A DNA stretch of 64,000 nt from Bacillota bacterium (GTDB taxonomy: Bacteria > Bacillota > Sulfobacillia > JAJZYS01 > JAJYTV01). The stretch spans positions 25,593-89,592 of the forward strand of contig JAJYTE010000005.1 of assembly GCA_021793215.1 (NCBI GenBank), given 5' to 3'. The notes below the pieces were generated by a model that saw only the letters and a program-made list of their open reading frames with translations, searched no databases and was not told the origin of the DNA. Positions 49,141 to 61,914 of the stretch are shown here, piece by piece. The translations under genes and the position numbers were made by a program. Position 1 is the first letter of the stretch, and the number at the start of each line of letters is the position of its first letter.

Positions 49141-51393
49141 CTACTTGGCCTGCGCGTCGGCGATCAGCCGCACGACGCGCTCTGGCGTCAGCGGAAGTTC
49201 GCGCGCCATCCCGCCGCCGAGCGGGCGCAGCGCGTCTTCCACAGCGCCCGCCACGGCTGCGAGGGCCGGGACCGTGCCACCCTCGCCTACCCCCTTAACC
49301 CCGAGCGGGTTGCGCGGTGACGGTGAGCACAGGTGGTGGATCTCCGCCCCGGGAACGTCGAGCGCAGTCGGCAGCGGGTAGTCCATGAAGCTGCCCGTGA
49401 GCAGTTGACCCTGCTCGTCGTAGACCAGTTCCTCGAGCAGCGCCGCCGCCACGCCGTAGGAGAGGCCGCCTTGGATCTGGCCGTCCACCTGGCGCGGGCT
49501 GATGACCACCCCGCAGTCGTCGACGATCACGTAGCGCAGGATCTCGACGCCCCCCGTCTGCGGGTCTACCGCGACGATCGCGATGTGGCAGCCGTCGGCG
49601 TACGTCGCCTGCTCCGGGCGGAAGTCGGCCAGCGCGCGCAGGGGCGTTCCCTTCGCCGCAGCCTGCGCCGCGAGCTCCGAGAGCGCGAGCGAGCCCTCTG
49701 GCCCCTCGACCCTGCCGGGCGAGAGTGAGAGAAGGTCCTTGTCCTGCCTGAGCACCGCGGCGGCCTCCTGCAGCAGGAGCTCCTTGAGTTTGCCGCATGC
49801 GAGGTAGAGCGCCGAACCCGCGAGCACCGTCGCGCGCGAGCCGAAAGTGCCGATCCCGGCAGGCACGAGCGCGGTATCCGTGTCCGCGTAGACGATCTCG
49901 TCCGGCGTCTGCGACAGGGCGGAGCAGGCGATCTGGGTGAAGCTCGTCTCGTGGCCCTGCCCCTGCGCGGGGGACCCTGTCGCGATAAGGATCCGTCCAT
50001 CCGCCGCGAGCTCCGTGACCGCCATCTCGAAGGGCGCAACGCCGGTGTCCTCGGTGAACATGGCGATGCCAATGCCGATGCGCCGGCCATCGGCGAGCGG
50101 CTCCGCCTGGCGGCTCCGCCAAGCGTCAAGATCCGCGGCGTTGAGCGCCGTTTCCAGCGCCAAGGGGTAGTCACCGCTGTCGTAGACGATCGAGCCATGG
50201 CCGTACCGGTCGGGGATGAGCGTGTCGTACGGCATCTCGTGCGGCTCGATCAGGTTGCGGCGCCGGACCTCAGCGCGATCCAGCCCGAGGCGCTCCGCGA
50301 GCGCGTCCAGCATCCGCTCCATCACGAAGTTGCCCTCCGGTCTTCCGGCGCCGCGGTACGGCCCGACGGGCACCTTGTGCGTCTTGACGTTGCGCACGCG
50401 GCAGCGATAGGCGGAGAGGTGGTATGGGCCAGGGATCGTGACCGCCGTCGCCATCCCGTAGTTGATGCGGGCCGTGTAGGCTCCCGCGTCGAGCAGCATG
50501 TCGTCGTCGATGGCGAGGAGTGTCCCGTCGCGCCGCGCGGCGAGGCGCACGCGGTGGACCTGCGCGCGAGAGTGCACAGTCGAAAGGAAGTGCTCGCGCC
50601 GGTCCTCCTGGAACCGCACCGGCCGCTGCAGCTTCAGCGCCAGGTAGGCCGCGAGCACGTCCTCGGGGTACGTGCCGTTCTTCACGCCGAACCCGCCACC
50701 CACGTCCTGCGCCACGACGCGCACGCGCTCTGGCGGCAGCGAGAGCGCGCTCGCGATGCCCTGGCGCATCCCGTGCGGACCCTGGGTCGCGGCGTAGATC
50801 AGAAGGCCCTCGCCCTCCGGTACGGCGAGGATCGCACGGCCCTCCAAGGGCTGGGCCGTTGCCCGGCCGATCGCGAGCCGCTCCTCCAGTACGATGTCGG
50901 CGGCGGCGAACAACGGATCGATCTCGCCGAACGCGATCACCGCGTCGTCGTGCGAAGCGGCATCGCCGCCCGCCTGGGTCACGATGCGCTCCACGTCTGC
51001 GAGCACGTCGAGCCGCCGGTAGCGGACGAACAGCTTCTCAAGGGCATCCTCCGCGAGGTAGCGATCCTCGGCTACCGCTACCGCCACTCCCTGTCCGACG
51101 TAGAGCACCTCGTCCGTCGCGAGCGGCGGCTGCACGCCGCCGAAGAGATGCGGCGCCTCCTGGAGCAACGCGGCTCCGCCCATCGCGCACGAGACGCCCG
51201 GCAGGTCCGTGGCGCCGCGGTCCTCCAGGGAGATGATCGCCGCGTGCGCGTGCGGGCTTCGGAGCACCGCCATCTCGAGCACGTCCGGCAGTGGCAGGTC
51301 CCCGACGTAGCGGCCCTTGCCGGTCAGGAGGCGCTGGTCCTCGATGCGGAGGATGTCCTCGCCGATGCCTCCGCGCGTCTTGACCCGCGGCAT
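49141..51393 (-). CDS. xanthine dehydrogenase family molybdopterin-binding large subunit, form II CoxL-like (active-site loop …PYRGAGRPEGN…)
   Basis: Start MPRVKTRGGIGEDILRIEDQRLLTGKG…. Aldehyde oxidase/xanthine dehydrogenase a/b hammerhead and MoCo-binding domains. YRGAGR is the form II motif, not form I AYxCSFR. The ORF-track start at 52161 reads through the upstream genes in another frame. Confidence 0.8.
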   Translation of the reverse strand: MPRVKTRGGIGEDILRIEDQRLLTGKGRYVGDLPLPDVLEMAVLRSPHAHAAIISLEDRGATDLPGVSCAMGGAALLQEAPHLFGGVQPPLATDEVLYVGQGVAVAVAEDRYLAEDALEKLFVRYRRLDVLADVERIVTQAGGDAASHDDAVIAFGEIDPLFAAADIVLEERLAIGRATAQPLEGRAILAVPEGEGLLIYAATQGPHGMRQGIASALSLPPERVRVVAQDVGGGFGVKNGTYPEDVLAAYLALKLQRPVRFQEDRREHFLSTVHSRAQVHRVRLAARRDGTLLAIDDDMLLDAGAYTARINYGMATAVTIPGPYHLSAYRCRVRNVKTHKVPVGPYRGAGRPEGNFVMERMLDALAERLGLDRAEVRRRNLIEPHEMPYDTLIPDRYGHGSIVYDSGDYPLALETALNAADLDAWRSRQAEPLADGRRIGIGIAMFTEDTGVAPFEMAVTELAADGRILIATGSPAQGQGHETSFTQIACSALSQTPDEIVYADTDTALVPAGIGTFGSRATVLAGSALYLACGKLKELLLQEAAAVLRQDKDLLSLSPGRVEGPEGSLALSELAAQAAAKGTPLRALADFRPEQATYADGCHIAIVAVDPQTGGVEILRYVIVDDCGVVISPRQVDGQIQGGLSYGVAAALLEELVYDEQGQLLTGSFMDYPLPTALDVPGAEIHHLCSPSPRNPLGVKGVGEGGTVPALAAVAGAVEDALRPLGGGMARELPLTPERVVRLIADAQAK

Positions 51394-51893
51394 CAGGCTT
51401 GCCTCCGCTGGTCGGCCTGGAGCGTCCCGGCGGCTTCCCGCACCGCCTGAACGATGTTCTCGTAGCCGGTGCAGCGGCAGATCTGGCCCGAGAGCGCCGT
51501 GCGAATCTCCTGCTCGCTGGGGCTTGGGTTCTCTCTGAGGAACTCGGTGGCGGTCATCAGGAAGCCCGGGGTGCAGTAGCCGCACTGCAGCGCGTGCCGA
51601 CGCCGAAAGGCCTCCTGCAGAGGGGTGAGGTCTCCGTCGCCCGCGAGCCCCTCGACCGTCTGCACGGCGGCGCCGTCCAGCTGGGCCGCGAAGGTGAGGC
51701 ACGAGCGCATGGCCACGCCGTCCACCAGCACGGTGCAGGCGCCGCACACACCCTGCTCGCAGCCCGTGTGCGTCCCTCGCAGGCCGAGGTCGTCGCGCAG
51801 GAAGTCCGCGAGCGTCCGCCGCGCCTCGACCAGGCGCGAGACTTCGCTGCCGTTGACGGTCAGTTGGACCCTGACGCGATCCTGCGGTTCCAT
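51393..51893 (-). CDS. [2Fe-2S]-binding small subunit (CoxS/XdhC-type)
   Basis: Plant-ferredoxin-type and helical 2Fe-2S motifs (CEQGVCGACTV…; CGYCTPGF…CRCTGY). Overlaps its neighbours by 1 nt. Confidence 0.85.
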   Translation of the reverse strand: MEPQDRVRVQLTVNGSEVSRLVEARRTLADFLRDDLGLRGTHTGCEQGVCGACTVLVDGVAMRSCLTFAAQLDGAAVQTVEGLAGDGDLTPLQEAFRRRHALQCGYCTPGFLMTATEFLRENPSPSEQEIRTALSGQICRCTGYENIVQAVREAAGTLQADQRRQA

Positions 51894-52771
51894 CAGGCCA
51901 CCTCCCGTACTGCGCGCGCCGCGGCGGTCGCGAGGGCGCGCTCGACGAGCGTCCGCGCGAGTTCCCTTCGGTATCCTTCCGACGCTTGCACGTCGCTCTG
52001 CGGCTCGATCTCCTGTGAAGCGAGGCGCGCCCCCTCCGCGAAGGCGGTAGGCTCCGCCCTCTTCCCGGTGAGGAAGGCTTCCGCCTGCGACGCCCGCACG
52101 CATGCGGGCCCGACGCCCGCAAGGGCAAGCGCCGCCCGCGCGATGCTGCCGTCGCTGCCAAGCGTCACAAGCGCGGCGACGCCTACGATGGCGAAATCCC
52201 CATGGCGGCGCGCGAACTCGAGGAACGACGCCCCGGTTCCGGCTGGGGGGAGTGGGAAGACGAGGTCCGTCGCGACCTCGTCGGGCGCGAGCGCCGTCTG
52301 GAAGAATCCGAGGAAGAAGTCCTGCGAGGGGACATCGCGCAACCCTTGCGAGCCCTCAAGCCGCACGCTGCCATCGACCGCCGCGAGCACCGCGGGGATC
52401 TCGGCGGAGGGATCTGCGTGGCAGCAGCTCCCGACGAGCGTACCGCGGCTGCGGATCTGCGAGTGGCCGATCTGCGAGATCGCCTCGGCGAGGATCGGCA
52501 GGTTCGCGCGCACGAGCTCCGAGCGCTCCGCACTGCGCTGACGCGCGAGCATCTCCACGCGCAGAGCGCCCCGCTCGACGTAGATGCCATCCTTCTGGGG
52601 GATGCGGTTGAGGTCGATGAGGATCTCCGGGCGCGACAGGCGAAGGTTCATCATCGGAACGAGGCTCTGGCCACCGGCGAGCAGCTTCGCAGCGTCGGAG
52701 TGCTCGGACAGGAGGTCCACCGCTTCCGTGACGCTGCGGGCGGCCGCGTAGCGAAAACTCGCGGGCTTCAT
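51893..52771 (-). CDS. FAD-binding medium subunit (CoxM/XdhB-type)
   Basis: FAD_binding_5 pattern (…AGGQSLVPMMNLRL…; …GTLVGSCCHADPSAEIPAVL…). Confidence 0.8.
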   Translation of the reverse strand: MKPASFRYAAARSVTEAVDLLSEHSDAAKLLAGGQSLVPMMNLRLSRPEILIDLNRIPQKDGIYVERGALRVEMLARQRSAERSELVRANLPILAEAISQIGHSQIRSRGTLVGSCCHADPSAEIPAVLAAVDGSVRLEGSQGLRDVPSQDFFLGFFQTALAPDEVATDLVFPLPPAGTGASFLEFARRHGDFAIVGVAALVTLGSDGSIARAALALAGVGPACVRASQAEAFLTGKRAEPTAFAEGARLASQEIEPQSDVQASEGYRRELARTLVERALATAAARAVREVA

Positions 52772-52859
52772 ACGACACCTCCGTGGGTGCGGCAAAGGCT
52801 GGCTGGCCCATGCCTCATCTGCTGCAGATGATTCGCGTGCGTTCCGCGCGATGCCTGCC

Positions 52860-54848
52860 TCAGCGCTTCGACCTGGCCTCGGTGCGGCGCGACTCGAGCT
52901 CCGCGATCAGGTCGCGCACCACGGCCGCGCGCTCGAACTCGAGGGCGCGGGCCGCCTCCCGCATCTCACGCCGCAGCTTCTCGAGAAGTCGCGGAATGTC
53001 GCGCGGCTTCACGCTCTCGATGCCCTTCTCGTCGAGCGCCTGCACGCCGATCGGCTTTGTCGCCTCGATCACGTCGCGCACGGCCTTCTCCACACCCTGC
53101 GGCGTGATGCCGTGCTCTGCGTTGAACTCCGCTTGCAGCGCGCGCCGCCGCTCGGTTTCCGAGATCGCCTGCGCCATCGAGTCCGTGACGACGTCGGCGT
53201 AGAGGATCACCCGCCCGTCGAGGTTTCTGGCCGCGCGGCCGATCGTCTGCACGAGCGCCGTCGCGGATCTGAGGTAGCCCTCCTTGTCGGCGTCGAGGAT
53301 GGCGACGAGCGCCACCTCCGGCAGGTCGAGACCCTCGCGCAGAAGGTTGATGCCGACGAGCACGTCGAAGACGCCGAGCCGCAGGTCGCGGATGATCGCC
53401 ATCCGCTCGATCGTCTCGACATCGGAGTGCATGTAGCGGACCTTCACACCGACCTCCTTGAGGTAGTCGGTGAGTTCCTCGGACATCTTCTTGGTCAAGG
53501 TGGTGACGAGGACGCGCTGGTGCCGTTCGGCCCGCACGCGGATCTCGTGCAGCAGGTCGTCGATCTGCCCCTTCGTCGGCCGCACCTCGACCTCGGGGTC
53601 CAGAAGACCCGTGGGCCGCACGATCTGTTCCATCACGCGCGACGAGCGGGAGAGCTCGAAGTTCGACGGCGTCGCCGAGACGTACACGACCTGGTTGAGG
53701 CGTTCGAGGAACTCGTCGAAGCGCAGCGGGCGGTTGTCGAACGCCGAGGGGAGGCGGAACCCGAAGTCCACGAGGGACTCCTTGCGCGAGCGGTCGCCCG
53801 CGTACATCGCGCGCACCTGCGGCAGCGACTGGTGCGACTCGTCGACGAACAGCAGGAAGTCCTTGGGGAAGAAGTCGAGCAGCGTGTACGGAGGTGCGCC
53901 CGGGGGGCGGCCCGTCAGGTGGCGCGAGTAGTTCTCGATGCCCGGGCAGAAGCCGATCTCCTGCAGCATCTCCATGTCATGGCGCGTGCGCTGCTCGATC
54001 CGCTGGGCCTCGAGGAGCTTGCCCTGGGAGCGGAGCATGAGCAGCTGGTTCTCGAGTTCCTCCTCGATGGTCACGATCGCGCGCTCGCGCTTGTCCTTCG
54101 ATGTGACGTAATGCGAGGCCGGGTAGATCGCGACGTGGTGACGCGAACCGAGGATCTCTCCTGTGAGGACGTCGACCTCGAGGATCCGCTCGATCAGGTC
54201 GCCGTTGAACTCGATGCGGATCGCCCGCTCCTCGTTCGAGGCCGGAAGCACTTCGAGCACCTCGCCGCGCAGGCGGAAGGTGCCGCGCGTGAAGTTCACG
54301 TCGTTGCGGTCGTACTGGATGTCGACGAGCTTGCGCAGAATCTCGCGCCGGTCTCGCTCCTGACCCGCGCGCAGCGAGAGGCAGAGGGCGTGGTAGTCCT
54401 CCGGCGAGCCGAGCCCGTAGATGCAGCTCACGGACGCCACGATGATCACGTCGCGCCGCTCGAAGAGCGCCGTGGTGGCGGCGTGGCGCAGCTTGTCGAT
54501 CTCGTCGTTGATCGTCGCGTCCTTCTCGATGTAGGTGTCGCTCGTCGCGATGTACGCCTCGGGCTGGTAGTAGTCGTAGTAGGAGACGAAGTACTCGACG
54601 GCGTTTCGTGGGAAGAAGGCCTGGAATTCGCCGCAAAGTTGCGCCGCCAGCGTCTTGTTGTGGGCGAGGACGAGCGTGGGGCGCTGCAGCTCCTCGATCA
54701 CCCAGGCCATCGTCGCCGTCTTGCCCGAACCGGTCACCCCAAGGAGCGTCTGCTCGCGCAGCCCTTCGCGCAGCCCTTCGCTGAGCCCGGCGATCGCCTT
54801 CGGCTGGTCACCCGCAGGCCGGTAGCTCGACTCGATCTGAAAGTCCAT
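52860..54848 (-). CDS. uvrB: excinuclease ABC subunit B
   Basis: Start [16 protein letters not shown]… preceded by GGAGGAGG. Helicase motifs GVTGSGKT and DESH, C-terminal UVR domain. Confidence 0.95.
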
Positions 54849-54893
54849 GCAGGCCTCCTCCGTGCAGCGCACGCCGCCTGCGAGGCGGCGACA

Positions 54894-54922: not shown

Positions 54923-55038
54923 GCGTGCGCGCCGTCCGCGCGTCGCCCCAGACCGCTTCGACCTTCCAGAACGGGAGAGGGCGCTGCCTTCGGCGCAGCG
55001 CCCTCTCCTGTTCGTTCCGCCCGGGCGCGCCCGGACGT

Positions 55039-55257
55039 TCAGCGGCGTGCCCTCCTGCGCACGGCCGAGAGCAGCAGCATGGACTGCGCGATCGGCAGGC
55101 CCACGAGGTAGATGCCGAGCCCAAGGAGCACGAGGCCGATCGGCAGCACCACCCAGTCGGCGCGCGTCAGGGCGGTGTAGCTGAGGGCTGTGCCGACGAC
55201 GCCCGCCAGCATCCCCGGGATGATGCGCCAAGGGGTCGGGGGCGGCGGCAGGCGCAT
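55039..55257 (-). CDS. small 2-TM membrane protein (hypothetical)
   Basis: 72 aa MRLPPPPTPWRIIPGMLAGVVGTALSYTAL…LPIGLVLLGLGIYLVGL…. Its ATG overlaps the upstream stop by 1 nt. Confidence 0.3.
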   Translation of the reverse strand: MRLPPPPTPWRIIPGMLAGVVGTALSYTALTRADWVVLPIGLVLLGLGIYLVGLPIAQSMLLLSAVRRRARR

Positions 55258-56186
55258 CACTCTCTCCTCGCTTTGCGCCAGATCAGGCGGTGCAGCCCGA
55301 CGCCGCGAGGGATGTCGCGCAGCCCGGGGATGAACGGCACGAGCATGAGGAGGAGCGAGAGGAGTCCGATCGTAAGGCCGACCAGGAGGTCCGCCGAGGC
55401 GGACGTGCTGTAGGGCGGAATCTGGTAGAGCGCCGTGTAGAGCCACAGCCAGACTGCGCCTGGGTAGTTGTCCGGTTCGCGCATCATGCCCCACTGCGCG
55501 CCGAGCATGTGCAGCGGCGTCGCGGCCGCACCCATGGCCTGACCCTGCAAGAGCAGCATCTGGGACGTCAGGTCCGTCTGGTACACGGAGCCGTTCTGGC
55601 CGACCGCCGCCTCGAGCAGCCCGCTGCGCGCGAGCCGGAAGTAGCCGTCGAGCATCGTCGGCAGCGGACCGTAGTGGCCCTTGGGCAGCACGACGCCCGA
55701 CGCATCGTAGCGCGCCTTGCCGAGCGCCTTCAGCGCCGCTCCGGTCCATGCTTGCTGCTGGCTTCGCGGCGCGGCTTCGTAGGTCGTGAGGGCGCCTTTC
55801 AGGTTCGGCGAGAGCGCAGCCGCCGATTGCAGCGGCCGAAGGACGAACACCTTCGCCGCGTTGATCGGGATCTGCACGCCGGCCCATGCCTCGGGCGAGA
55901 AGCCGCCAATCGACTGCGAAGCGCCGGGCTGGTTGTTGTATGGTGGCCCGTACTGCGCGATGGCCGACTGGCCAGCCAGCGCTCTCAGGGCGGTCCCCGC
56001 GAGGATGGCGGGTTCGACCTTCGCGACGCGCTGCGCGGTGAGGGACGGTTCGTCCGGGGAGGAGAAGGCCGCCGCGAGGACGACCCCAAGCGCCAGCACG
56101 ATCGCGAGCGCCCACGCGAGTTCCTTCAGGAGGTCGTCCGGCTTCATCGATACGCCGCGGTAGTAGCGGCGCTGGCGATCGCTCAT
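55257..56186 (-). CDS. membrane protein (N- and C-terminal TM helices, large Cys-free extracytoplasmic domain), co-operonic with cytochrome b
   Basis: Start MSDRQRRYY… overlaps the cytochrome b stop (ATGA). No CxxCH or Rieske motifs. Confidence 0.45.
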   Translation of the reverse strand: MSDRQRRYYRGVSMKPDDLLKELAWALAIVLALGVVLAAAFSSPDEPSLTAQRVAKVEPAILAGTALRALAGQSAIAQYGPPYNNQPGASQSIGGFSPEAWAGVQIPINAAKVFVLRPLQSAAALSPNLKGALTTYEAAPRSQQQAWTGAALKALGKARYDASGVVLPKGHYGPLPTMLDGYFRLARSGLLEAAVGQNGSVYQTDLTSQMLLLQGQAMGAAATPLHMLGAQWGMMREPDNYPGAVWLWLYTALYQIPPYSTSASADLLVGLTIGLLSLLLMLVPFIPGLRDIPRGVGLHRLIWRKARRE

Positions 56187-56797
56187 GACCGGCGCACCAC
56201 CTTCGGCGGCGGGTCGTCGATCGGGCGTACGACCCCGTGCCAGCGCACAAGCAGAATGTGCAGTCCGATCAGGATGGCGAGCACGAGCGGCAGGATGACG
56301 ATGTGAAAGCCGTACATCTGCCCGAAGTTCAGGAGGTTGAAGAAGCCACCCACGCCGAGGGCGTTCATGGCGTCCTTGCCCTGCACCGCGATCCACTGGC
56401 TGTCGAAGTTCTGCTGCGACAGGAAGCCCGTGAGCGCTGTGGGGACGGAGATCAGGAACAGCAGTACGCCGACCACCCAGGTCCACTGCCGCCCGTCGCG
56501 CCACGCGGCCATGAAGAACTGGGACCATAGGTGCAGGACCATGGCGAAGAAGAACATCTGGACCGTCCAGAAGTGCAGGCTGTTGAAGAAGTGCCCGACG
56601 CCCGAGACGTGCCACCACTGCGGGCCGAACGCAGCCAGAATGATGCCGCTCACGACGAGCAGCACGAAGCTCGCCAGCGTCGCGACGCCGAAGTAGTAGA
56701 CGTACGAGTGTACGTAGCGCGGCAGCTCGGACGGCAGCAGATCCTCGTACGGCAGCTCCCGCTGCAGGGTCTGCTGGACCTTCTTCGTCCAGTTCAC
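56183..56797 (-). CDS. cytochrome b/b6 N-terminal-domain protein (di-heme, ~204 aa)
   Basis: Four TM helices with His pairs (…GHFFNSLHFWTVQMFFFAMVLHLW… and …FHIVILPLVLAILIGLHILLVRWHG…), the bis-His ligation pattern of cytochrome b6/bc. GTG start. Confidence 0.7.
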   Translation of the reverse strand: MNWTKKVQQTLQRELPYEDLLPSELPRYVHSYVYYFGVATLASFVLLVVSGIILAAFGPQWWHVSGVGHFFNSLHFWTVQMFFFAMVLHLWSQFFMAAWRDGRQWTWVVGVLLFLISVPTALTGFLSQQNFDSQWIAVQGKDAMNALGVGGFFNLLNFGQMYGFHIVILPLVLAILIGLHILLVRWHGVVRPIDDPPPKVVRRS

Positions 56798-56949
56798 TTC
56801 CCCGCCCCCCTGCGGCGGACAGGCAGCCAGACGGCCAAAGCGAACAGGACGACCATCAGGGTGATCGTCAGGACGTCCACCGCCGTCAGGCTGAGGAATC
56901 CGAGGCCGATCTCCGTCCCTGGAGTCGCGCCGGGAACGAGCGGGTCCAT
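56794..56949 (-). CDS. small single-TM protein (51 aa) immediately upstream of cytochrome b
   Basis: MDPLVPGATPGTEIGLGFLSLTAVDVLTITLMVVLFALAVWLPVRRRGRGK. Its TGA overlaps the cytochrome b GTG (GTGA). Confidence 0.25.
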   Translation of the reverse strand: MDPLVPGATPGTEIGLGFLSLTAVDVLTITLMVVLFALAVWLPVRRRGAGK

Positions 56950-57009
56950 TCCGCCACCTCACTTCGTCCGCGCGCTGAGCGCGCACGCCCGCGCCTCAGT
57001 CGAGACGAT

Positions 57010-57579
57010 CTACTTCGGTACCCACTTGGCGAACTGCGCCAGATGCCCCCAGTAGCCCGCATACCCGGTGAAGAGGAAGACGACGGCCGCGATCCCGAGG
57101 AAGATGGCCGCCACGATCGCGATGCCGCGCTGCTTGCGCCAGTTGATCGCCGGCAAGGTAAGCATGCCGCCGATGCCTGCCGCAATATACCCGATCGAGG
57201 TCAGCGCCGGCTGAGAGGTCATCCCGAGGTCCCCGATGCGGATCCCGACGACCACCGCCAAGAGCCCTCCGAAGAACCCGTACAGGGCGGGGATCAAGGG
57301 GTCCCAGCGCAGCGCCAACGTGATGCCGGCGCCGACGAACGCCACGCTGAGGTACAGCGCCGGCTCCCCGAACGCGATGTTGTACGAACCGGGCAGGGGC
57401 CAGTTCACGATCATCGGCACGGAAGTGACAAGGCCCAGCAGGCCCGCGGCGAAGAAGCCGGCGGCCCAGGCCTGGCGGTCGCCGGGCTCAGGATTGCGGT
57501 ACAGGTAGTGCGCAAGGATGACGAAGCCGGAGGAAAGACCAACGAGCATCACGGCAAGGTAATCGGTGAACAACTGCAT
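57010..57579 (-). CDS. polytopic membrane protein (5-6 TM; DUF981-like?), hypothetical
   Basis: Start MQLFTDYLAVML… preceded by AAGGTGGGGGG. Hydrophobic throughout. Confidence 0.5.
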   Translation of the reverse strand: MQLFTDYLAVMLVGLSSGFVILAHYLYRNPEPGDRQAWAAGFFAAGLLGLVTSVPMIVNWPLPGSYNIAFGEPALYLSVAFVGAGITLALRWDPLIPALYGFFGGLLAVVVGIRIGDLGMTSQPALTSIGYIAAGIGGMLTLPAINWRKQRGIAIVAAIFLGIAAVVFLFTGYAGYWGHLAQFAKWVPK

Positions 57580-57689
57580 CCCCCCACCTTGAGATCGGAG
57601 GGCGGCCCCCCGCGAGTATGAGCCCACTATGAGGAGTCGGGTAGGAATTGGCAAGTGCACGGGCCCATGAGCATGCGGCCATGGGACGA

Positions 57690-57724
57690 AGGTCGGGGCA
57701 TGGGTTCCAGACCCATGCCCCGAC
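57690..57724 (-). terminator. perfect 15-bp stem / 5-nt loop hairpin downstream of bactofilin gene
   Basis: GGTCGGGGCATGGGT-TCCAG-ACCCATGCCCCGACC. The 3' flank on the minus strand (TTCGTCCC) is weakly U-rich. Confidence 0.45.
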
Positions 57725-57740
57725 CGCGGACGCCGAGCCG

Positions 57741-58148
57741 CTACTGCGCGGCGGCCTTCGCCTCGCCCTGTTTGCCCTTGGTCGGCTGGTTGGCGGCGAG
57801 ATCGCCGTTCAGCGACGCGCCCTCCGCGACCGAAAGCTTCTGCGCCCGGATCTCCCCGTTGACGCGCGCCGTCTCGCCGATCTCGCAGCGCTCCGCCTGG
57901 ATCGATCCCTCGACCAAGCCTTGCACCACCAGCTCGCGGACGGTCAGCTTGGCATGCACCTCGGCGCGCGGTCCGATCACGACCGTGCCCTCGTGCTCTA
58001 CCTGACCGGTCACCTTGCCCTCGATGCGCAGGACGCCCTTGCCGCGCAAGGTACCCTCGAACTGCACATCCGTACCGATGTACGTCGCAGAGGAGTCGAC
58101 CGGCGCTGCATCCTCACCGGAACGCTTGTTGGCGAACATCCGTGACAT
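57741..58148 (-). CDS. bactofilin (polymer-forming cytoskeletal protein)
   Basis: 135 aa. Repetitive beta-helix pattern (…GTVVIGPRAEVHAKLTVRELVVQGLVEGSIQAERCEIGETARVNGEI…) typical of the DUF583 bactofilin domain. Confidence 0.85.
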   Translation of the reverse strand: MSRMFANKRSGEDAAPVDSSATYIGTDVQFEGTLRGKGVLRIEGKVTGQVEHEGTVVIGPRAEVHAKLTVRELVVQGLVEGSIQAERCEIGETARVNGEIRAQKLSVAEGASLNGDLAANQPTKGKQGEAKAAAQ

Positions 58149-58151
58149 GGC

Positions 58152-59000
58152 TCAGTTCACCCCTTGGGGATTCGAATGGATGAAGGTCCAAGGATTCGTC
58201 GGGAGTCCCCTGTAGTGGATCCCGAAATGCACATGCGGTCCGGTTGAGTTGCCCGTGTCGCCCGAGAGCGCGATGACCTGCCCCCGTTTGACACTCTCCC
58301 CCTTGTGGACGAGAATCTTCGAATTATGACCGAAGAAGCTCTCGATACCGTACCCGTTGTCGATCTGAACGTACAGACCGTACCCGTTGTACCAGCCCGC
58401 GTAGGACACCACGCCGGAGCCCGGCGAATGCACCGGCGAGCCAACCGGGACCGCGATGTCGATCCCGTCGTGGAACTCTGCACCGTTCCCGCCGAGCGGG
58501 TTCGTGCGCCAGCCGAAGCCGGATACGACCTTCCCGTTCACGGGCAGCATGTCTGGTTTGTGCGCCAGGAACTGGCTGCGCACCTCGGAGGCAGATAGAA
58601 CCGCCGGAAGCTGCTTTTGTATTTGGTGCAGGCGAGTGAAGAGGTTGTCGAGTCCCTTGCCGCCAGTACTCAGGGTCAGGCCGAGGATGCCGGCGACGTG
58701 GTTCATGTCCGACGTCATCGCCTGCACTTCCGACAGGGCCTGGCGGTTCTGCTGCTGGTCGGCGGCGACCTGCTTCCGGAGCGTACGGTTCTGCGCCTGC
58801 ACGTTCGCAGCAACGGCAAGCTCCCGGCGCAGATGGTTCACGGCGGTTACGTCCTGGTATGCGGCGATCAGCACGAAGACAAAACTTGCCACGAGAAGAG
58901 ACGCAACCACGCCCGCGACGCTGAGCCAAGCGCGGTGTCTTTGCTGAAATCGCCACTCTCTGGCCTCTCCGCCACGCTCCGGGAAGACCAAGACGCGCAA
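58152..59000 (-). CDS. M23 family metallopeptidase (LytM-like) with N-terminal TM and coiled coil
   Basis: HDGIDIAVPVGSPV…GYGLYVQIDNGYG…GDTGNSTGPHVHFGIH catalytic motifs. Confidence 0.85.
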   Translation of the reverse strand: MRVLVFPERGGEAREWRFQQRHRAWLSVAGVVASLLVASFVFVLIAAYQDVTAVNHLRRELAVAANVQAQNRTLRKQVAADQQQNRQALSEVQAMTSDMNHVAGILGLTLSTGGKGLDNLFTRLHQIQKQLPAVLSASEVRSQFLAHKPDMLPVNGKVVSGFGWRTNPLGGNGAEFHDGIDIAVPVGSPVHSPGSGVVSYAGWYNGYGLYVQIDNGYGIESFFGHNSKILVHKGESVKRGQVIALSGDTGNSTGPHVHFGIHYRGLPTNPWTFIHSNPQGVN

Positions 59001-59119
59001 GTCTTCCCGAGGTATGGTGCTTTCGCCTCCTTAAGAGGGACATTCCGCCGTCGGTTCCACCATACTGCTATTCTCTCCACGAACAAACAACCCTCTTGCG
59101 CAGTATGAGTTTCTCGTTG

Positions 59120-59152
59120 GAGCAAAAAGGAGATCGCACCGATCGGTGCGAC
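59120..59152 (-). terminator. rho-independent terminator after EnvC-like M23 gene
   Basis: Minus strand: GGTCGCACCGATCGGTGCGATC hairpin then TCTCCTTTTTGCTCC. Confidence 0.55.
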
Positions 59153-59180
59153 CTCTGCTTTCAGAGATCAGAGATGCGCG

Positions 59181-60329
59181 CTACGGCTTCGGGGGCATGT
59201 AGGGCATCGGGTTCACCGGCTTTCCGTCGATTCGCACCTCGAAGTGCAGGTGAGGTCCTGTGGCCCAGCCCGTCATCCCGACGTAGCCGATGACCTGACC
59301 CTGCTGCACCTCTTCCCCCACCTGGGATCCGAAGCGCGACTGGTGGGCGTAGAGGTTCGAGATTCCCTGGCCGTCGTCGACGATGATCGTGTAGCCGTAG
59401 CCGTTCAGCCACTGGGCGACGATCACCTTTCCCGACGCGGCGGCGTGGATCGGCGTGCCCTCCGGAACGCCGATGTCGATCCCGGTGTGGATCCACCACT
59501 GGTGCATCACCGGGTCGAGGCGCCAGCCGAACGGAGAGGTGATCGGACCAACGACCGGCCAGATGAACTTGACGCCGCGCACCCCGGCGCCGCTGCCGTG
59601 GCTCTCGAGGCTCTGGATGATCTGCTCGATCTCCTGGGAGTTGCCCTCGTCGGAGTGCACGGCGCTGCTCTGCTTGGCGTAGGAGGCGTCGAGCGCCGCG
59701 ATCGCCTGTTGCTGGTACTTGAGCTGCGAGGAGAGAGCCGCCTGCTCCTGGCGGCGGACCGACGCGACGTGGACGTACTGCGAGCGCTCGGCGGCCAGGG
59801 TGCTCTTTTCGTTCTTGAGCTGCTTCTCCGCCGTCTGGACGGTGCGGATGACCTGCACGTCGGCCGCGACGATCTGGCTCAGAAGGCCCAGCCGCACGGT
59901 GAAGTCGGTGAAGGACTGGGCTCCGAGCAGCACGTTGAGGTAGCCCCCGGCGCCCTCCTGCTCGATCGCGACGAGGGCGCCGCCGACGACCTTCTGGTCA
60001 TGGACGACCTTGAGCTGCGTCGTGGCGATCTCCTTCTGCTTGAAGCCGATCCGCCGGCCGAGCGTCGCCTCCCAGTTGAGCGCCTGGTCGAGCTGCGCCG
60101 TGGTCTTGTCGAGGCTCTGATGCACGGCGGCCACCGTAGAGCGCTCGCTCGCGAGCGACTGCTGCGTCTGCTGCAGCATCTGCTTGTCCCGCTGCAACTG
60201 CTCCTGGATCTGCTTTAGCTGCTGCTGCGCCTGCTGCAGCGTTTCCGCATGCGCCGTCGGCGCGACGAACGCGGCGCAGACGGTGAGAGAGACCCCCAGT
60301 GCGACCATTCGCTTGGCGCGTCCCATCAT
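59181..60329 (-). CDS. FtsEX-associated M23 peptidase with long N-terminal coiled coil (EnvC/PcsB-like)
   Basis: Signal peptide, ~250-aa Q-rich coiled coil, C-terminal M23 motifs (HTGIDIGVPEGTPI…GMTGWATGPHLHFEV). Start overlaps the ftsX stop. Confidence 0.8.
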   Translation of the reverse strand: MMGRAKRMVALGVSLTVCAAFVAPTAHAETLQQAQQQLKQIQEQLQRDKQMLQQTQQSLASERSTVAAVHQSLDKTTAQLDQALNWEATLGRRIGFKQKEIATTQLKVVHDQKVVGGALVAIEQEGAGGYLNVLLGAQSFTDFTVRLGLLSQIVAADVQVIRTVQTAEKQLKNEKSTLAAERSQYVHVASVRRQEQAALSSQLKYQQQAIAALDASYAKQSSAVHSDEGNSQEIEQIIQSLESHGSGAGVRGVKFIWPVVGPITSPFGWRLDPVMHQWWIHTGIDIGVPEGTPIHAAASGKVIVAQWLNGYGYTIIVDDGQGISNLYAHQSRFGSQVGEEVQQGQVIGYVGMTGWATGPHLHFEVRIDGKPVNPMPYMPPKP

Positions 60330-61213
60330 ACCCGAGCGAGCCTCCGGACCGACAGTCTGAAGCCGACGGCCCCGAGCAGCACCCCGAGCACCACGATCAG
60401 CACGGCGACATCGCGCGCGGTCGGGATCGGAGTGACCAGTGGAACGAACGGCAGGGAGTGCGCCGCACCGGTGTAGAGCGCAGCGTAGCCCCACCACGCG
60501 ATGACGGCGGCCAGCACGGACCCGATCAGCCCGAGGATCAGACCTTCGAGGATGAACGGCCAGTGCACGAGGGACTCGGTCGCCCCGACGAGGCGCATGA
60601 TCGCGATCTCCCTGCGGCGCGACACGATGCCGAGCCGGATGGCGTTGTTGATCACGAGGAGCGCCCCGAGCAGCAGGAGGATGCCGATGCCGAGCCCGAC
60701 GATGCGGATCGCGTTGATCAGGCTGAAGAGCCGGGTGACGACCTGGCTCTGGTAGGAGACCTTGACGACGCCAGTGAGGTTCCCGAGCGACTTCGCAAGC
60801 GGCGCGACGTCCGCCGGGCTCTTGGCGGTCACGGACAGGGAGTCCTCAAGCGGGTTCGCAGTGCCGAGGCTGTTCAACACGCTCGCCTGGTCGCCGAACT
60901 CGGACTTCAGCTGTCGCAGCGCCTCTTGACGCGTGATGATCTTGGCGGAACGAACCTTTGGCCACTTGCGCACCTCGGCGAGCGCCGACTGCTCCTGGGC
61001 GGTCTTGGTGGACTGTTTGAAGAATGCGCGCACGGCGACCTGGTTCTCGATGTTGCTGGTGATCTGGTTGACGTTCGCGGTGAGCAACAGGAACATTCCC
61101 AGCACCAGCAGCGACACGGCCGTCGTGGTGATCGAGGCGATGGCGAGCACAGGGTTGCGCAGAAGGTTCTGGTTCGCTTCGCTCAGGCAGAACGACCAGG
61201 TCCGCAGCCTCAC
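60326..61213 (-). CDS. ftsX: cell division ABC transporter permease FtsX
   Basis: N-terminal TM, large extracytoplasmic domain, 3 C-terminal TMs. Overlaps ftsE. Confidence 0.9.
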   Translation of the reverse strand: MRLRTWSFCLSEANQNLLRNPVLAIASITTTAVSLLVLGMFLLLTANVNQITSNIENQVAVRAFFKQSTKTAQEQSALAEVRKWPKVRSAKIITRQEALRQLKSEFGDQASVLNSLGTANPLEDSLSVTAKSPADVAPLAKSLGNLTGVVKVSYQSQVVTRLFSLINAIRIVGLGIGILLLLGALLVINNAIRLGIVSRRREIAIMRLVGATESLVHWPFILEGLILGLIGSVLAAVIAWWGYAALYTGAAHSLPFVPLVTPIPTARDVAVLIVVLGVLLGAVGFRLSVRRLARV

Positions 61214-61914
61214 TCCACCACCCCCTCGGAGTAGGACGCTGCCAACTCGTCTCGCCGGATCTGCCCGTCCACCATCGCCACGACGCGCTGACGCGCCCGG
61301 TCGACGAGGTGGGCGGCGTGGGTCGCCATCACAACGGTCGTCCCGAGCCGGTTGATCTCGAGGAGGGTCTTCATCATCTCGGCCGCGTTCACGGGGTCTA
61401 GGTTGCCAGTGGGCTCGTCCGCCAGAAGGACAAGCGGACGGCCGACCATCGCGCGCGCGAGCGCTACCCGCTGCTGCTCTCCGCCAGAGAGTTGCCCCGG
61501 CAGGGCACCGGCGCGGTCGGGCAGGCCGACGAGATCGAGCACTTGCGCCACGCGCCGCTTGATCTCCTTGGGGTGCACCTCGACAACGCGCAGCGCGAAG
61601 GCGATGTTCTCGGTCACGGTGCGCTGCGGCAGGAGGCGGAAATCCTGGAACACGACGCCGATCTGCCGCCTTAGGAACGGAATCTGCCTGCGGCGCATGC
61701 GCCCGACGTCATGGCCGTTGACAGATACCACGCCGGTGGTGGGCACGTCCTCCCGGAAGAGAAGGCGCAGAAGCGTCGACTTCCCAGCGCCGCTCGGTCC
61801 CACGAGGAACGCGAACTCGCCCTTGGAGATCTCGAGGTCCACGTCGCGTAGCGCCACGACCCCGTTCGGGAACGCCTTGCCGACATTGCGCAGGCTGATC
61901 AATTGAACGCACAC
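61210..61914 (-). CDS. ftsE: cell division ATP-binding protein FtsE
   Basis: Walker A GPSGAGKST, signature LSGGEQQRVALARA, Walker B LLLADEPTGNLD. Confidence 0.9.
   Translation of the reverse strand: MCVQLISLRNVGKAFPNGVVALRDVDLEISKGEFAFLVGPSGAGKSTLLRLLFREDVPTTGVVSVNGHDVGRMRRRQIPFLRRQIGVVFQDFRLLPQRTVTENIAFALRVVEVHPKEIKRRVAQVLDLVGLPDRAGALPGQLSGGEQQRVALARAMVGRPLVLLADEPTGNLDPVNAAEMMKTLLEINRLGTTVVMATHAAHLVDRARQRVVAMVDGQIRRDELAASYSEGVVE

Follow-up and report, generated by a model that had tools for sequence, protein, structure and literature searches.

Analysis of the 64-kb stretch of Bacillota DNA studied here (all 64,000 nt of it, hereafter the window) led to an overlapping four-gene cassette at 55039-56949 on the minus strand, which codes, in this order, for a 51-aa peptide, a 204-aa cytochrome b, a 309-aa membrane protein and a 72-aa membrane protein. 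Few energy-converting enzymes have been studied as closely as the Rieske/cytochrome b complexes, in which the cytochrome b core does not normally occur apart from the Rieske protein and the Q cycle. Our preferred reading, to which we give a probability of roughly 0.55, is that the cassette encodes a Rieske-independent, quinone-linked, di-heme transmembrane electron-transfer complex that is a relative of bc1/b6f. The structural part of this description, taken alone, can be held with good confidence; the functional part, which we infer, is tentative and falls somewhat short of even odds. The argument rests on the intact heme ligands of the cytochrome b, on its obligate 309-aa partner, on the recurrence of the cassette in four phyla and on the lack of any conserved Rieske or c-type cytochrome gene beside it.

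A b6-like cytochrome b in an overlapping gene cassette

The 204-aa protein matches two cytochrome b families of Pfam, PF13631 (E = 3.5e-13, 50.3 bits, gathering cut-off 27) and PF00033 (E = 1.5e-8, 35.1 bits, gathering cut-off 27.2), while phmmer returned solved b6f complexes as matches, with Chlamydomonas cytochrome b6 (1q90_B) at E = 1.1e-10. The initial annotation of this DNA, which was made from the sequence alone, had described a cytochrome b N-terminal protein with four conserved His ligands and had proposed to check their spacing by alignment. The alignment bears this out, as H75, H89, H165 and H180 pair with the heme ligands H86, H100, H187 and H202 of 1q90_B. The four heme-ligand His are invariant among 28 family members, the spacing in helix D is of the b6 type (15 positions from H165 to H180) and four conserved heme-packing glycines of helices A and C, read from the sequence, keep the canonical 14-residue spacing. 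The whole protein is Cys-free, with Tyr in place of Cys35 of cytochrome b6, the residue that binds heme ci, and it consequently has no heme ci site. The cd-loop motif PW(G/D)Q is replaced by SQQNFD.QWIA.QGKDA (SQQNFDSQW in this protein), which is highly conserved across the family. Two further His belong to the very short turn between helices A and B on the positive side of the membrane (P-side; 56591-56611): His63 of the GPQWWH motif, an extra, invariant and family-specific residue 12 positions ahead of the ligand of the P-side heme (bL), and His69, 89% conserved and 6 positions ahead of the same ligand. Both are candidate family-specific ligands for a proton, a quinol or a metal.

Membership of cytochrome b6 proper is not supported, as the NCBIfam b6 model PRK03735 reached 48.7 bits against a cut-off of 325 and the CxGG motif is missing; the b6 and QcrB models of NCBIfam together gave 31-49 bits against cut-offs of 325-500. 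The top NCBIfam model was that of ExtP (NF040969, E = 2e-16), and ExtP membership was ruled out by its score (60.3 bits, equivalog cut-off 290) and by the other operon partners. Judged by these matches and by the aligned ligands, the 204-aa protein is a genuine di-heme b6-like cytochrome b, divergent and not a canonical b6.

The genes described by the initial annotation are all present, and the two stop/start overlaps that it reported can be read directly: the GTG of the cytochrome b gene lies inside the GTGA that ends the 51-aa gene (AAGTGAAC), and the ATG of the 309-aa gene inside the ATGA that ends the cytochrome b gene (TCATGAGC). In addition, the stop codon of the 309-aa gene and the start codon of the 72-aa gene share 1 nt (TGATG, GAGTGATGCGC). 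The translational coupling that had been proposed between the cytochrome b and four other genes therefore stands for the 51-, 309- and 72-aa genes and fails for the DUF981 gene upstream, which is co-oriented and ends 60 nt before the start codon of the 51-aa gene. Inside this 60-nt gap the 51-aa gene is preceded by a Shine-Dalgarno-like sequence (GAGGTGG). Translational coupling implies that the four subunits are made together. By simple hydropathy the 51-aa peptide has one transmembrane (TM) segment, the 309-aa protein has two (residues 18-45 and 261-293) and the 72-aa protein is a hairpin. Downstream, the 86 nt at 54960-55045 fold with -54.3 kcal/mol (z = -4.7 against shuffles), and the stem-loop at 54974-55008 is probably the operon terminator; uvrB (52860-54872) comes next. 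As a separate observation, cysteine is absent from all five membrane proteins encoded at 55039-57579.

The 309-aa partner and the distribution of the cassette

The 309-aa protein gave no match in Pfam or NCBIfam. It was initially annotated as Cys-free and bitopic, which it is, and it proves moreover to be an obligate partner of the cytochrome b, to which it is fused in several lineages. Its ~200-aa extracytoplasmic domain lies between TM1 and a conserved segment, W-G-M-M-x-E...YPG..WLWLYT.LYQIPPY, that is followed by TM2; the family consensus before TM2 reads WGMMxE.GNYPG(A/Q)(V/A)WLWLYT. Across the family the outer domain holds no conserved Cys, His or Met, and we regard it as a cofactor-less helical domain of novel fold. 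Some of the homologues carry the automatic name 'Cytochrome B6' in UniProt and are labelled hypothetical at NCBI.

Gene order was compared in 85 non-redundant copies, neighbourhoods (±7 kb) in 83 non-redundant loci, and small open reading frames (ORFs) and DUF981 in 86 loci. The search for co-occurring homologues that the initial annotation had suggested showed that the four-gene cassette recurs: in 85/85 copies the 309-aa gene either comes straight after the cytochrome b gene or is joined to it in one ORF (fused in 10). The natural fusions are proteins of 541-639 aa with the cytochrome b N-domain first (P0206, P0239, P0250 and P0252, and those of several Ktedonobacteria, of Ferrithrix and of one Dormibacterota metagenome-assembled genome, MAG). 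No fusion partner of the 309-aa family other than the cytochrome b N-domain recurs; a patatin fragment in P0315 looks like a gene-calling artefact. Three representatives of the 309-aa family, P0264 (575 aa), P0301 and P0295, were seen to carry an extra 50-230 C-terminal residues without a Pfam match.

Long cytochromes b arose from b6 and subunit IV by the same type of fusion (PMC5600118). When the predicted model of a natural fusion is superposed on long cytochromes b, the 309-aa part falls on their C-terminal domain; long cytochromes b were also the top-ranked Foldseek matches. The topology of the 309-aa protein (N-terminus inside, TM helix, P-side segment, TM helix, C-terminus inside) equals that of helices E and F. 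The invariable position of the 309-aa gene after cytochrome b, the fusions and the superposition together give the module the look of a long cytochrome b split in two, into which a large domain has been inserted. A comparison of the loop-spliced family with PetD (four sequences) by hhalign gave 92 colinear columns with 32% identity (P = 0.008), at a probability of only 3-5%. In this statistically weak alignment YY.G...P(D)DLL before TM1 pairs with YYGEPAWPNDLL of PetD, and YQI...LL.VL...VPFI with FQI...LLGVL...VPFI; the invariant Glu237 pairs with the Glu of PEWY, and WLY with WY, only across a 10-residue insertion.

Homologues of the cytochrome b numbered 5570 in a large protein collection, the nearest 120 of them (66-100% identity, ~200 aa) coming from Thermaerobacter-like Bacillota, Chloroflexota and related MAGs. 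For the 309-aa protein 3215 homologues were counted, not one of which has a Pfam domain or an informative name, and its family profile matched 1121 clusters among 1.84 billion 50%-identity representatives. At least 593 cassette-encoding stretches were found in a one-genome-per-species collection. Among the best 80 of these, counted by record labels, ~27 belong to Actinomycetota (Solirubrobacterales, Acidimicrobiales, Ferrithrix), ~17 to Dormibacterota, ~16 to Chloroflexota (including Ktedonobacteria and Dehalococcoidia) and ~15 to Bacillota (including Alicyclobacillus mengziensis, A. ferrooxydans and Ferroacidibacillus organovorans), with single Binatia-labelled and Saccharimonadales-labelled MAGs.

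The small genes are conserved as well. A two-TM gene homologous to the 72-aa gene directly follows the 309-aa gene in 67/83 loci, and 7 more fall in a second cluster. An ORF of ~45-55 aa ending at the cytochrome b start is present in 62/86 loci; most of these share ..S..N/D....LM..F.hA...PFP, and in L001, L003 and L005 the ORF had been called as a gene. Independent Chloroflexota-like and Ferroacidibacillus contigs repeat the order peptide, cytochrome b, ~310-330-aa and ~70-95-aa protein with 4-nt overlaps. The tight operon of membrane proteins initially seen around the b6-like cytochrome b is thus established by its overlapping genes and recurrent order, and the four-gene cassette is a widespread, self-contained unit.

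Some genomes have two cassette copies (L017/L019, L021/L043, L020/L077). Two copies on separate contigs are present in Alicyclobacillus ferrooxydans and in one MAG each of Dormibacterota and Ktedonobacteraceae. Two Bacillota MAGs harbor a second, divergent cytochrome b/309-aa-type pair in opposite orientation within 1-3 kb (L008 11981-13712, L014 12830-14664), with hidden Markov model (HMM) scores of ~310-325 compared to 450-485 for the first copy. The cytochrome b/309-aa family has paralogous subtypes.

Proposed function, rival explanations and genomic neighbours

The initial annotation had seen neither a Rieske signature nor a CxxCH motif in the cluster. This holds for the entire window, where no ORF of at least 60 aa contains CxxCH or the Rieske-type pattern C.H.{14,30}C..H. 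Rieske-motif ORFs occur in 10/83 loci and CxxCH-motif ORFs in 19/83, at scattered positions and on either strand; a search for the conserved linkage to a Rieske or cytochrome c gene that would have pointed to a standard operon found no recurrent or position-conserved gene of either type within ±7 kb in the 83 loci, which represent four phyla, so the absence is no accident of this window. Assignment to the Rieske/cytochrome b complexes, which takes an associated Rieske gene as well as a c-type cytochrome or another high-potential acceptor, is accordingly supported neither at the locus nor among its 83 relatives.

The same survey bears on the strongest of the rival explanations, by which the cassette would encode the core of an ordinary Rieske/cytochrome b complex with a divergent subunit IV, running a normal Q cycle with a Rieske protein and an acceptor encoded elsewhere. 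Such separation has precedents, as some cytochromes b, e.g., certain anammox ones, are unlinked from Rieske genes (PMC5600118), and the intact set of four heme ligands and heme-packing glycines, together with the invariant Glu that hhalign aligned with the PEWY Glu, speaks for this explanation. DoxD-Rieske-type genes even lie within 5 kb of the cassette at L003, L024 and L057. We nevertheless consider it unlikely, on account of the linkage that is missing from the window and from four phyla, and of PEWY and PWGQ, which shape the Rieske-facing Qo pocket and are not conserved here. The inserted ~200-aa domain occupies precisely the P-side loop that receives the Rieske head, the b6 and QcrB models score far below their cut-offs, as given above, and two cassette copies are kept by some genomes (L017/L019, L021/L043; L008, L014).

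A Rieske-independent complex could be built as follows. The four proteins would form one integral-membrane complex, built in the manner of a long cytochrome b divided over separate chains. Subunit 1 would be a b6-type four-helix cytochrome b with a bis-His b heme close to either face of the membrane, two in all, and without covalent heme ci. In subunit 2, the 309-aa protein, TM1 would correspond to helix E, the P-side amphipathic segment with the invariant Glu to the PEWY region and TM2 to helix F, the P-side loop between the two helices being expanded into the ~200-aa domain. The 51-aa and 72-aa proteins would be small TM subunits, and the hairpin of the latter is topologically compatible with helices G/H. 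The complex is proposed to bind menaquinol or menaquinone, with electrons crossing the membrane through bL and the heme on the negative side (N-side; bH) and with no bifurcated high-potential branch from Rieske to cytochrome c. An interaction with the quinone pool is suggested by the fact that all characterised relatives have one. The enlarged P-side domain may cap what would be the docking face for a Rieske head, and either complete a modified quinol pocket or dock a further external partner; His63, His69, Glu237 and the conserved cd loop could form a modified quinol or proton site, or the docking site of a partner. With no high-potential branch encoded, the Qo motifs altered and the P face capped, the canonical bifurcated Qo reaction is unlikely, which favours a Rieske-independent quinone-linked role.

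A number of points weigh against this proposal. That the proteins bind heme, bind quinone and assemble into a complex is in each case deduced. Since PEWY and the cd-loop PW(G/D)Q are not conserved, a quinol-oxidising P site may not exist. A di-heme chain that has a quinone site at either end and lets no electrons out would amount to a futile cycle, so that a further donor or acceptor is needed. A Rieske protein may be encoded elsewhere in the genome, ~20 kb per genome having been examined. The fusion model is of moderate confidence only (pLDDT 72), and AlphaFold may be biased to the cytochrome b fold. Reversed-sequence controls of hhalign reached P = 0.06-0.09 over ~24 columns, and the HMMER profile of the 309-aa family matched just a spurious FAS1 protein (E = 0.8) among PDB sequences. 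PF00032 was matched neither by the native protein nor by 9 loop-spliced members at E<=10, and the P(E/D)WY motif as defined is absent between the presumed helices E and F of the family. In view of the weak hhalign result, the HMMER search and the missing PEWY, it is moderately supported that the 309-aa protein works in place of subunit IV or the cytochrome b C-terminal domain; PF00032 membership is not assigned and sequence homology to subunit IV is not claimed.

A bolder extension, that the expanded, cofactor-free P-side domain of the subunit IV equivalent replaces the Rieske protein and that the cassette represents a new class of membrane enzyme, respiratory or otherwise redox-active, that is widespread in Terrabacteria, is doubtful. 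The menaquinone pool would in that case be coupled to the two-heme wire, serving for example an extracytoplasmic acceptor or redox balancing under stress, and the cassette might even be a living example of the proposed 'pre-Rieske' stage in the evolution of bc complexes.

Neighbourhood clustering of the 83 loci revealed no recurrent partner genes beyond a NarL-type two-component system. In 35/83 loci a response regulator of the NarL family is encoded no more than 7 kb away, in ~20 of them within 3 kb (chance adjacency is 5-10% by our own rough estimate), and a GAF/PAS-HisKA_3 kinase is found in 18/83. The association could mean that the module itself is a redox- or signal-sensing or regulatory device, whose hemes report on the quinone pool, oxygen or nitric oxide to the NarL-type system or to other targets. 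Several features are suggestive of this: the regulator is often accompanied by a kinase without an obvious membrane sensor domain, genes of the universal stress protein, PAS and PNPOx types stand near the L001 and L004 cassettes, and the outer domain has neither cofactor-binding residues nor a known fold, which is common for sensor domains. Yet the two-component system is missing at most loci, this window and its closest relative (L006) included, and its adjacency is equally explained if it regulates the operon. Moreover, NCBIfam assigned the kinases and regulators only to generic NarL/HisKA_3 types, with MctS/MctR best and below cut-off and no specific redox sensor matched, and a fully conserved two-heme transmembrane wire is more typical of electron transfer. 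A sensory role is therefore improbable, slightly more so than a complex with a distant Rieske gene, and the NarL-type system probably controls cassette expression in many genomes. A specific match to the DosS/DosT-DosR hypoxia system was not obtained and the Dos label was dropped.

The coordinates of the cassette and of the features around it are collected in Table 1.

Table 1. Features of the cassette region in the 64-kb window, whose G+C is 63-74% (positions of the window; all on the minus strand)
Feature	Position	Strand	Remarks
51-aa single-TM peptide gene	56794..56949	-	First gene of the cassette; one hydrophobic segment; predicted N-out, C-in
Cytochrome b gene, 204 aa	56183..56797	-	GTG start; 4 TM; two b hemes (predicted); PF13631, PF00033
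309-aa bitopic protein gene	55257..56186	-	ATG start; candidate equivalent of subunit IV / cytochrome b C-terminal domain
Extracytoplasmic domain of the 309-aa protein	55458..56051	-	~Residues 46-243; mostly helical
72-aa two-TM hairpin protein gene	55039..55257	-	Last gene of the cassette; N-in, C-in by the positive-inside rule
DUF981 six-TM protein gene, 189 aa	57010..57579	-	Pfam PF06168, E=6e-48
GC-rich stem-loop, 14 bp	54974..55008	-	~30 nt past the last stop codon; without long U tract
Sigma-70-like promoter match, TTGCCA-17-CATAGT	57626..57654	-	Upstream of DUF981; consensus match only
His75 codon	56573..56575	-	Helix B; P-side heme (bL) ligand; aligned to H86 of cytochrome b6; invariant
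His89 codon	56531..56533	-	Helix B; N-side heme (bH) ligand; aligned to H100; invariant
His165 codon	56303..56305	-	Helix D; heme bL ligand; aligned to H187; invariant
His180 codon	56258..56260	-	Helix D; heme bH ligand; aligned to H202; invariant
His63 codon	56609..56611	-	GPQWWH motif; short P-side A-B turn; from conservation analysis

The gene next upstream of the cassette codes for a 189-aa DUF981 protein, which matches PF06168 over its full length (163.7 bits, cut-off 29), so that the three Pfam families named for checking in the initial annotation all score above their cut-offs. That annotation had also counted this protein as a member of the module, which the comparison contradicts. None of the 86 related loci has a DUF981 gene, the genome under study standing alone in this respect. 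L006, the closest relative, shares 83-90% protein identity and the gene order from ftsE to the CoxMSL-type genes; at the corresponding site it lacks DUF981, and its gap between the bactofilin gene and the cassette is ~210 bp compared to ~900 bp here, where 57010-57745 holds DUF981 and its flanks. As it is missing from the relatives and from L006, DUF981 is a lineage-specific insertion, recently gained or lost at this locus, and as a component of the module it was ruled out. It may be co-transcribed with the cassette in this organism, since the sole sigma-70-like promoter match of the region lies upstream of it. That DUF981 and the cassette form one organism-specific five-gene functional unit is very improbable: co-orientation, a spacing of just 60 nt, a sole promoter-like match that lies upstream of DUF981 and the lack of a terminator-like site in between would allow it, but the absence from all 86 loci and from L006 and the separate Shine-Dalgarno-like sequence of the 51-aa gene stand against it.

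Further genes of the window were examined as partners. Beyond uvrB, three overlapping genes at 49141-52795 code for a CoxMSL/xanthine-dehydrogenase-type molybdenum hydroxylase with flavin adenine dinucleotide (FAD), 2Fe-2S and Mo-binding large subunits, and are syntenic in L006. This enzyme was rejected as a redox partner, because it lies beyond uvrB and is not recurrent in other phyla. Upstream, 57741-61914 is occupied on the same strand by a cell-division and cell-wall cluster, with FtsE (61210-61914), FtsX (60326-61213), a PcsB-like coiled-coil M23 peptidase (59181-60497), a second M23 peptidase (58152-59000) and a bactofilin (57741-58148). Synteny of the FtsEX, M23 peptidase and bactofilin genes extends no further than the nearest relative, and they too were dismissed as partners.

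Two arrangements on Chloroflexota-like contigs deserve mention in their own right. In L003 (6194-7473, 12336-13451), L057 and L024, an AhpC/thioredoxin-like gene with a gene for a MauE/DoxX protein, and a DoxD-Rieske fusion, flank the cassette; these flanks hint at thiol or quinone redox functions nearby and are not recurrent. In L001 (6448-6921, 9885-10319) and L004 (7580-7816), PNPOx-like, PAS-only and universal-stress-protein genes accompany the cassette and the NarL-type system, an arrangement that is reminiscent, by analogy, of stress or dormancy regulons.

Significance and comparison with known systems

In the cassette family a b6-like core whose heme ligands are all intact is kept as a unit of four genes that stands by itself; it occurs in several hundred species at the least, and many of its hosts are abundant soil lineages known only from metagenomes. 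The obligatory 309-aa partner family comprises more than 1000 50%-identity clusters, with no Pfam or NCBIfam model and no curated name; it merits a family definition, and the labels 'Cytochrome B6' and 'hypothetical' need replacing. If catalytically active, the complex would add a missing component to respiratory-chain models of these phyla and would bear on the evolution of subunit IV and of the Qo site.

No description of the cassette was found in the full-text literature searched. A phylogenomic survey of 2017 lists cytochrome b subfamilies of 'obscure' function (PMC5600118), and these resemble the cassette family in having no CxGG heme-ci motif, in standing outside the standard bc operon and in having no known function. 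Subfamily K of that survey, as described there, is cyanobacterial and has lost a heme-ligand His, unlike the cassette cytochromes, which keep four invariant His and come from Bacillota, Chloroflexota, Dormibacterota and Actinomycetota. The family could not be mapped onto the obscure subfamilies, of which subfamily H may include its fused forms.

The ExtP protein of the selenite/tellurite reduction operon is, like the protein described here, a stand-alone cytochrome b N-domain of ~205 aa, and differs in its operon partners and, as seen above, by its model score. The long cytochromes b of bc1/bcc complexes (Corynebacterium QcrB, 7q21_B; Aquifex, 6kls_B) are among the closest known systems, and the natural fusions of the cassette family have the same domain order; the cassette is set apart from them by the large insertion in the region of the ef loop, by having no Rieske or cytochrome c1/cc partner and by fewer C-terminal helices of the main subunit. 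b6f and the Firmicute-type b6c complexes (PetB/QcrB with PetD/QcrC) are likewise among the closest. With both kinds of system the cassette has the heme-binding core in common and, probably, the way in which the helices are arranged overall. Unlike b6f and b6c, the cassette has no linked Rieske or cytochrome f/c gene, no heme-ci Cys (Cys35 is Tyr) and no conserved PEWY or PWGQ, and its partner protein has two TM helices instead of three, carries the ~200-aa P-side domain and does not match PF00032. It shares with them the four-helix cytochrome b with four His and the b6-type helix D spacing, and small single-TM accessory subunits. In both, a separate, coupled downstream gene encodes a protein whose N-in TM helix is followed by a conserved P-side segment and then by another TM helix with VPF(I) at its end, and cytochromes b6 and b are the best matches of the cassette in sequence as well as in structure.

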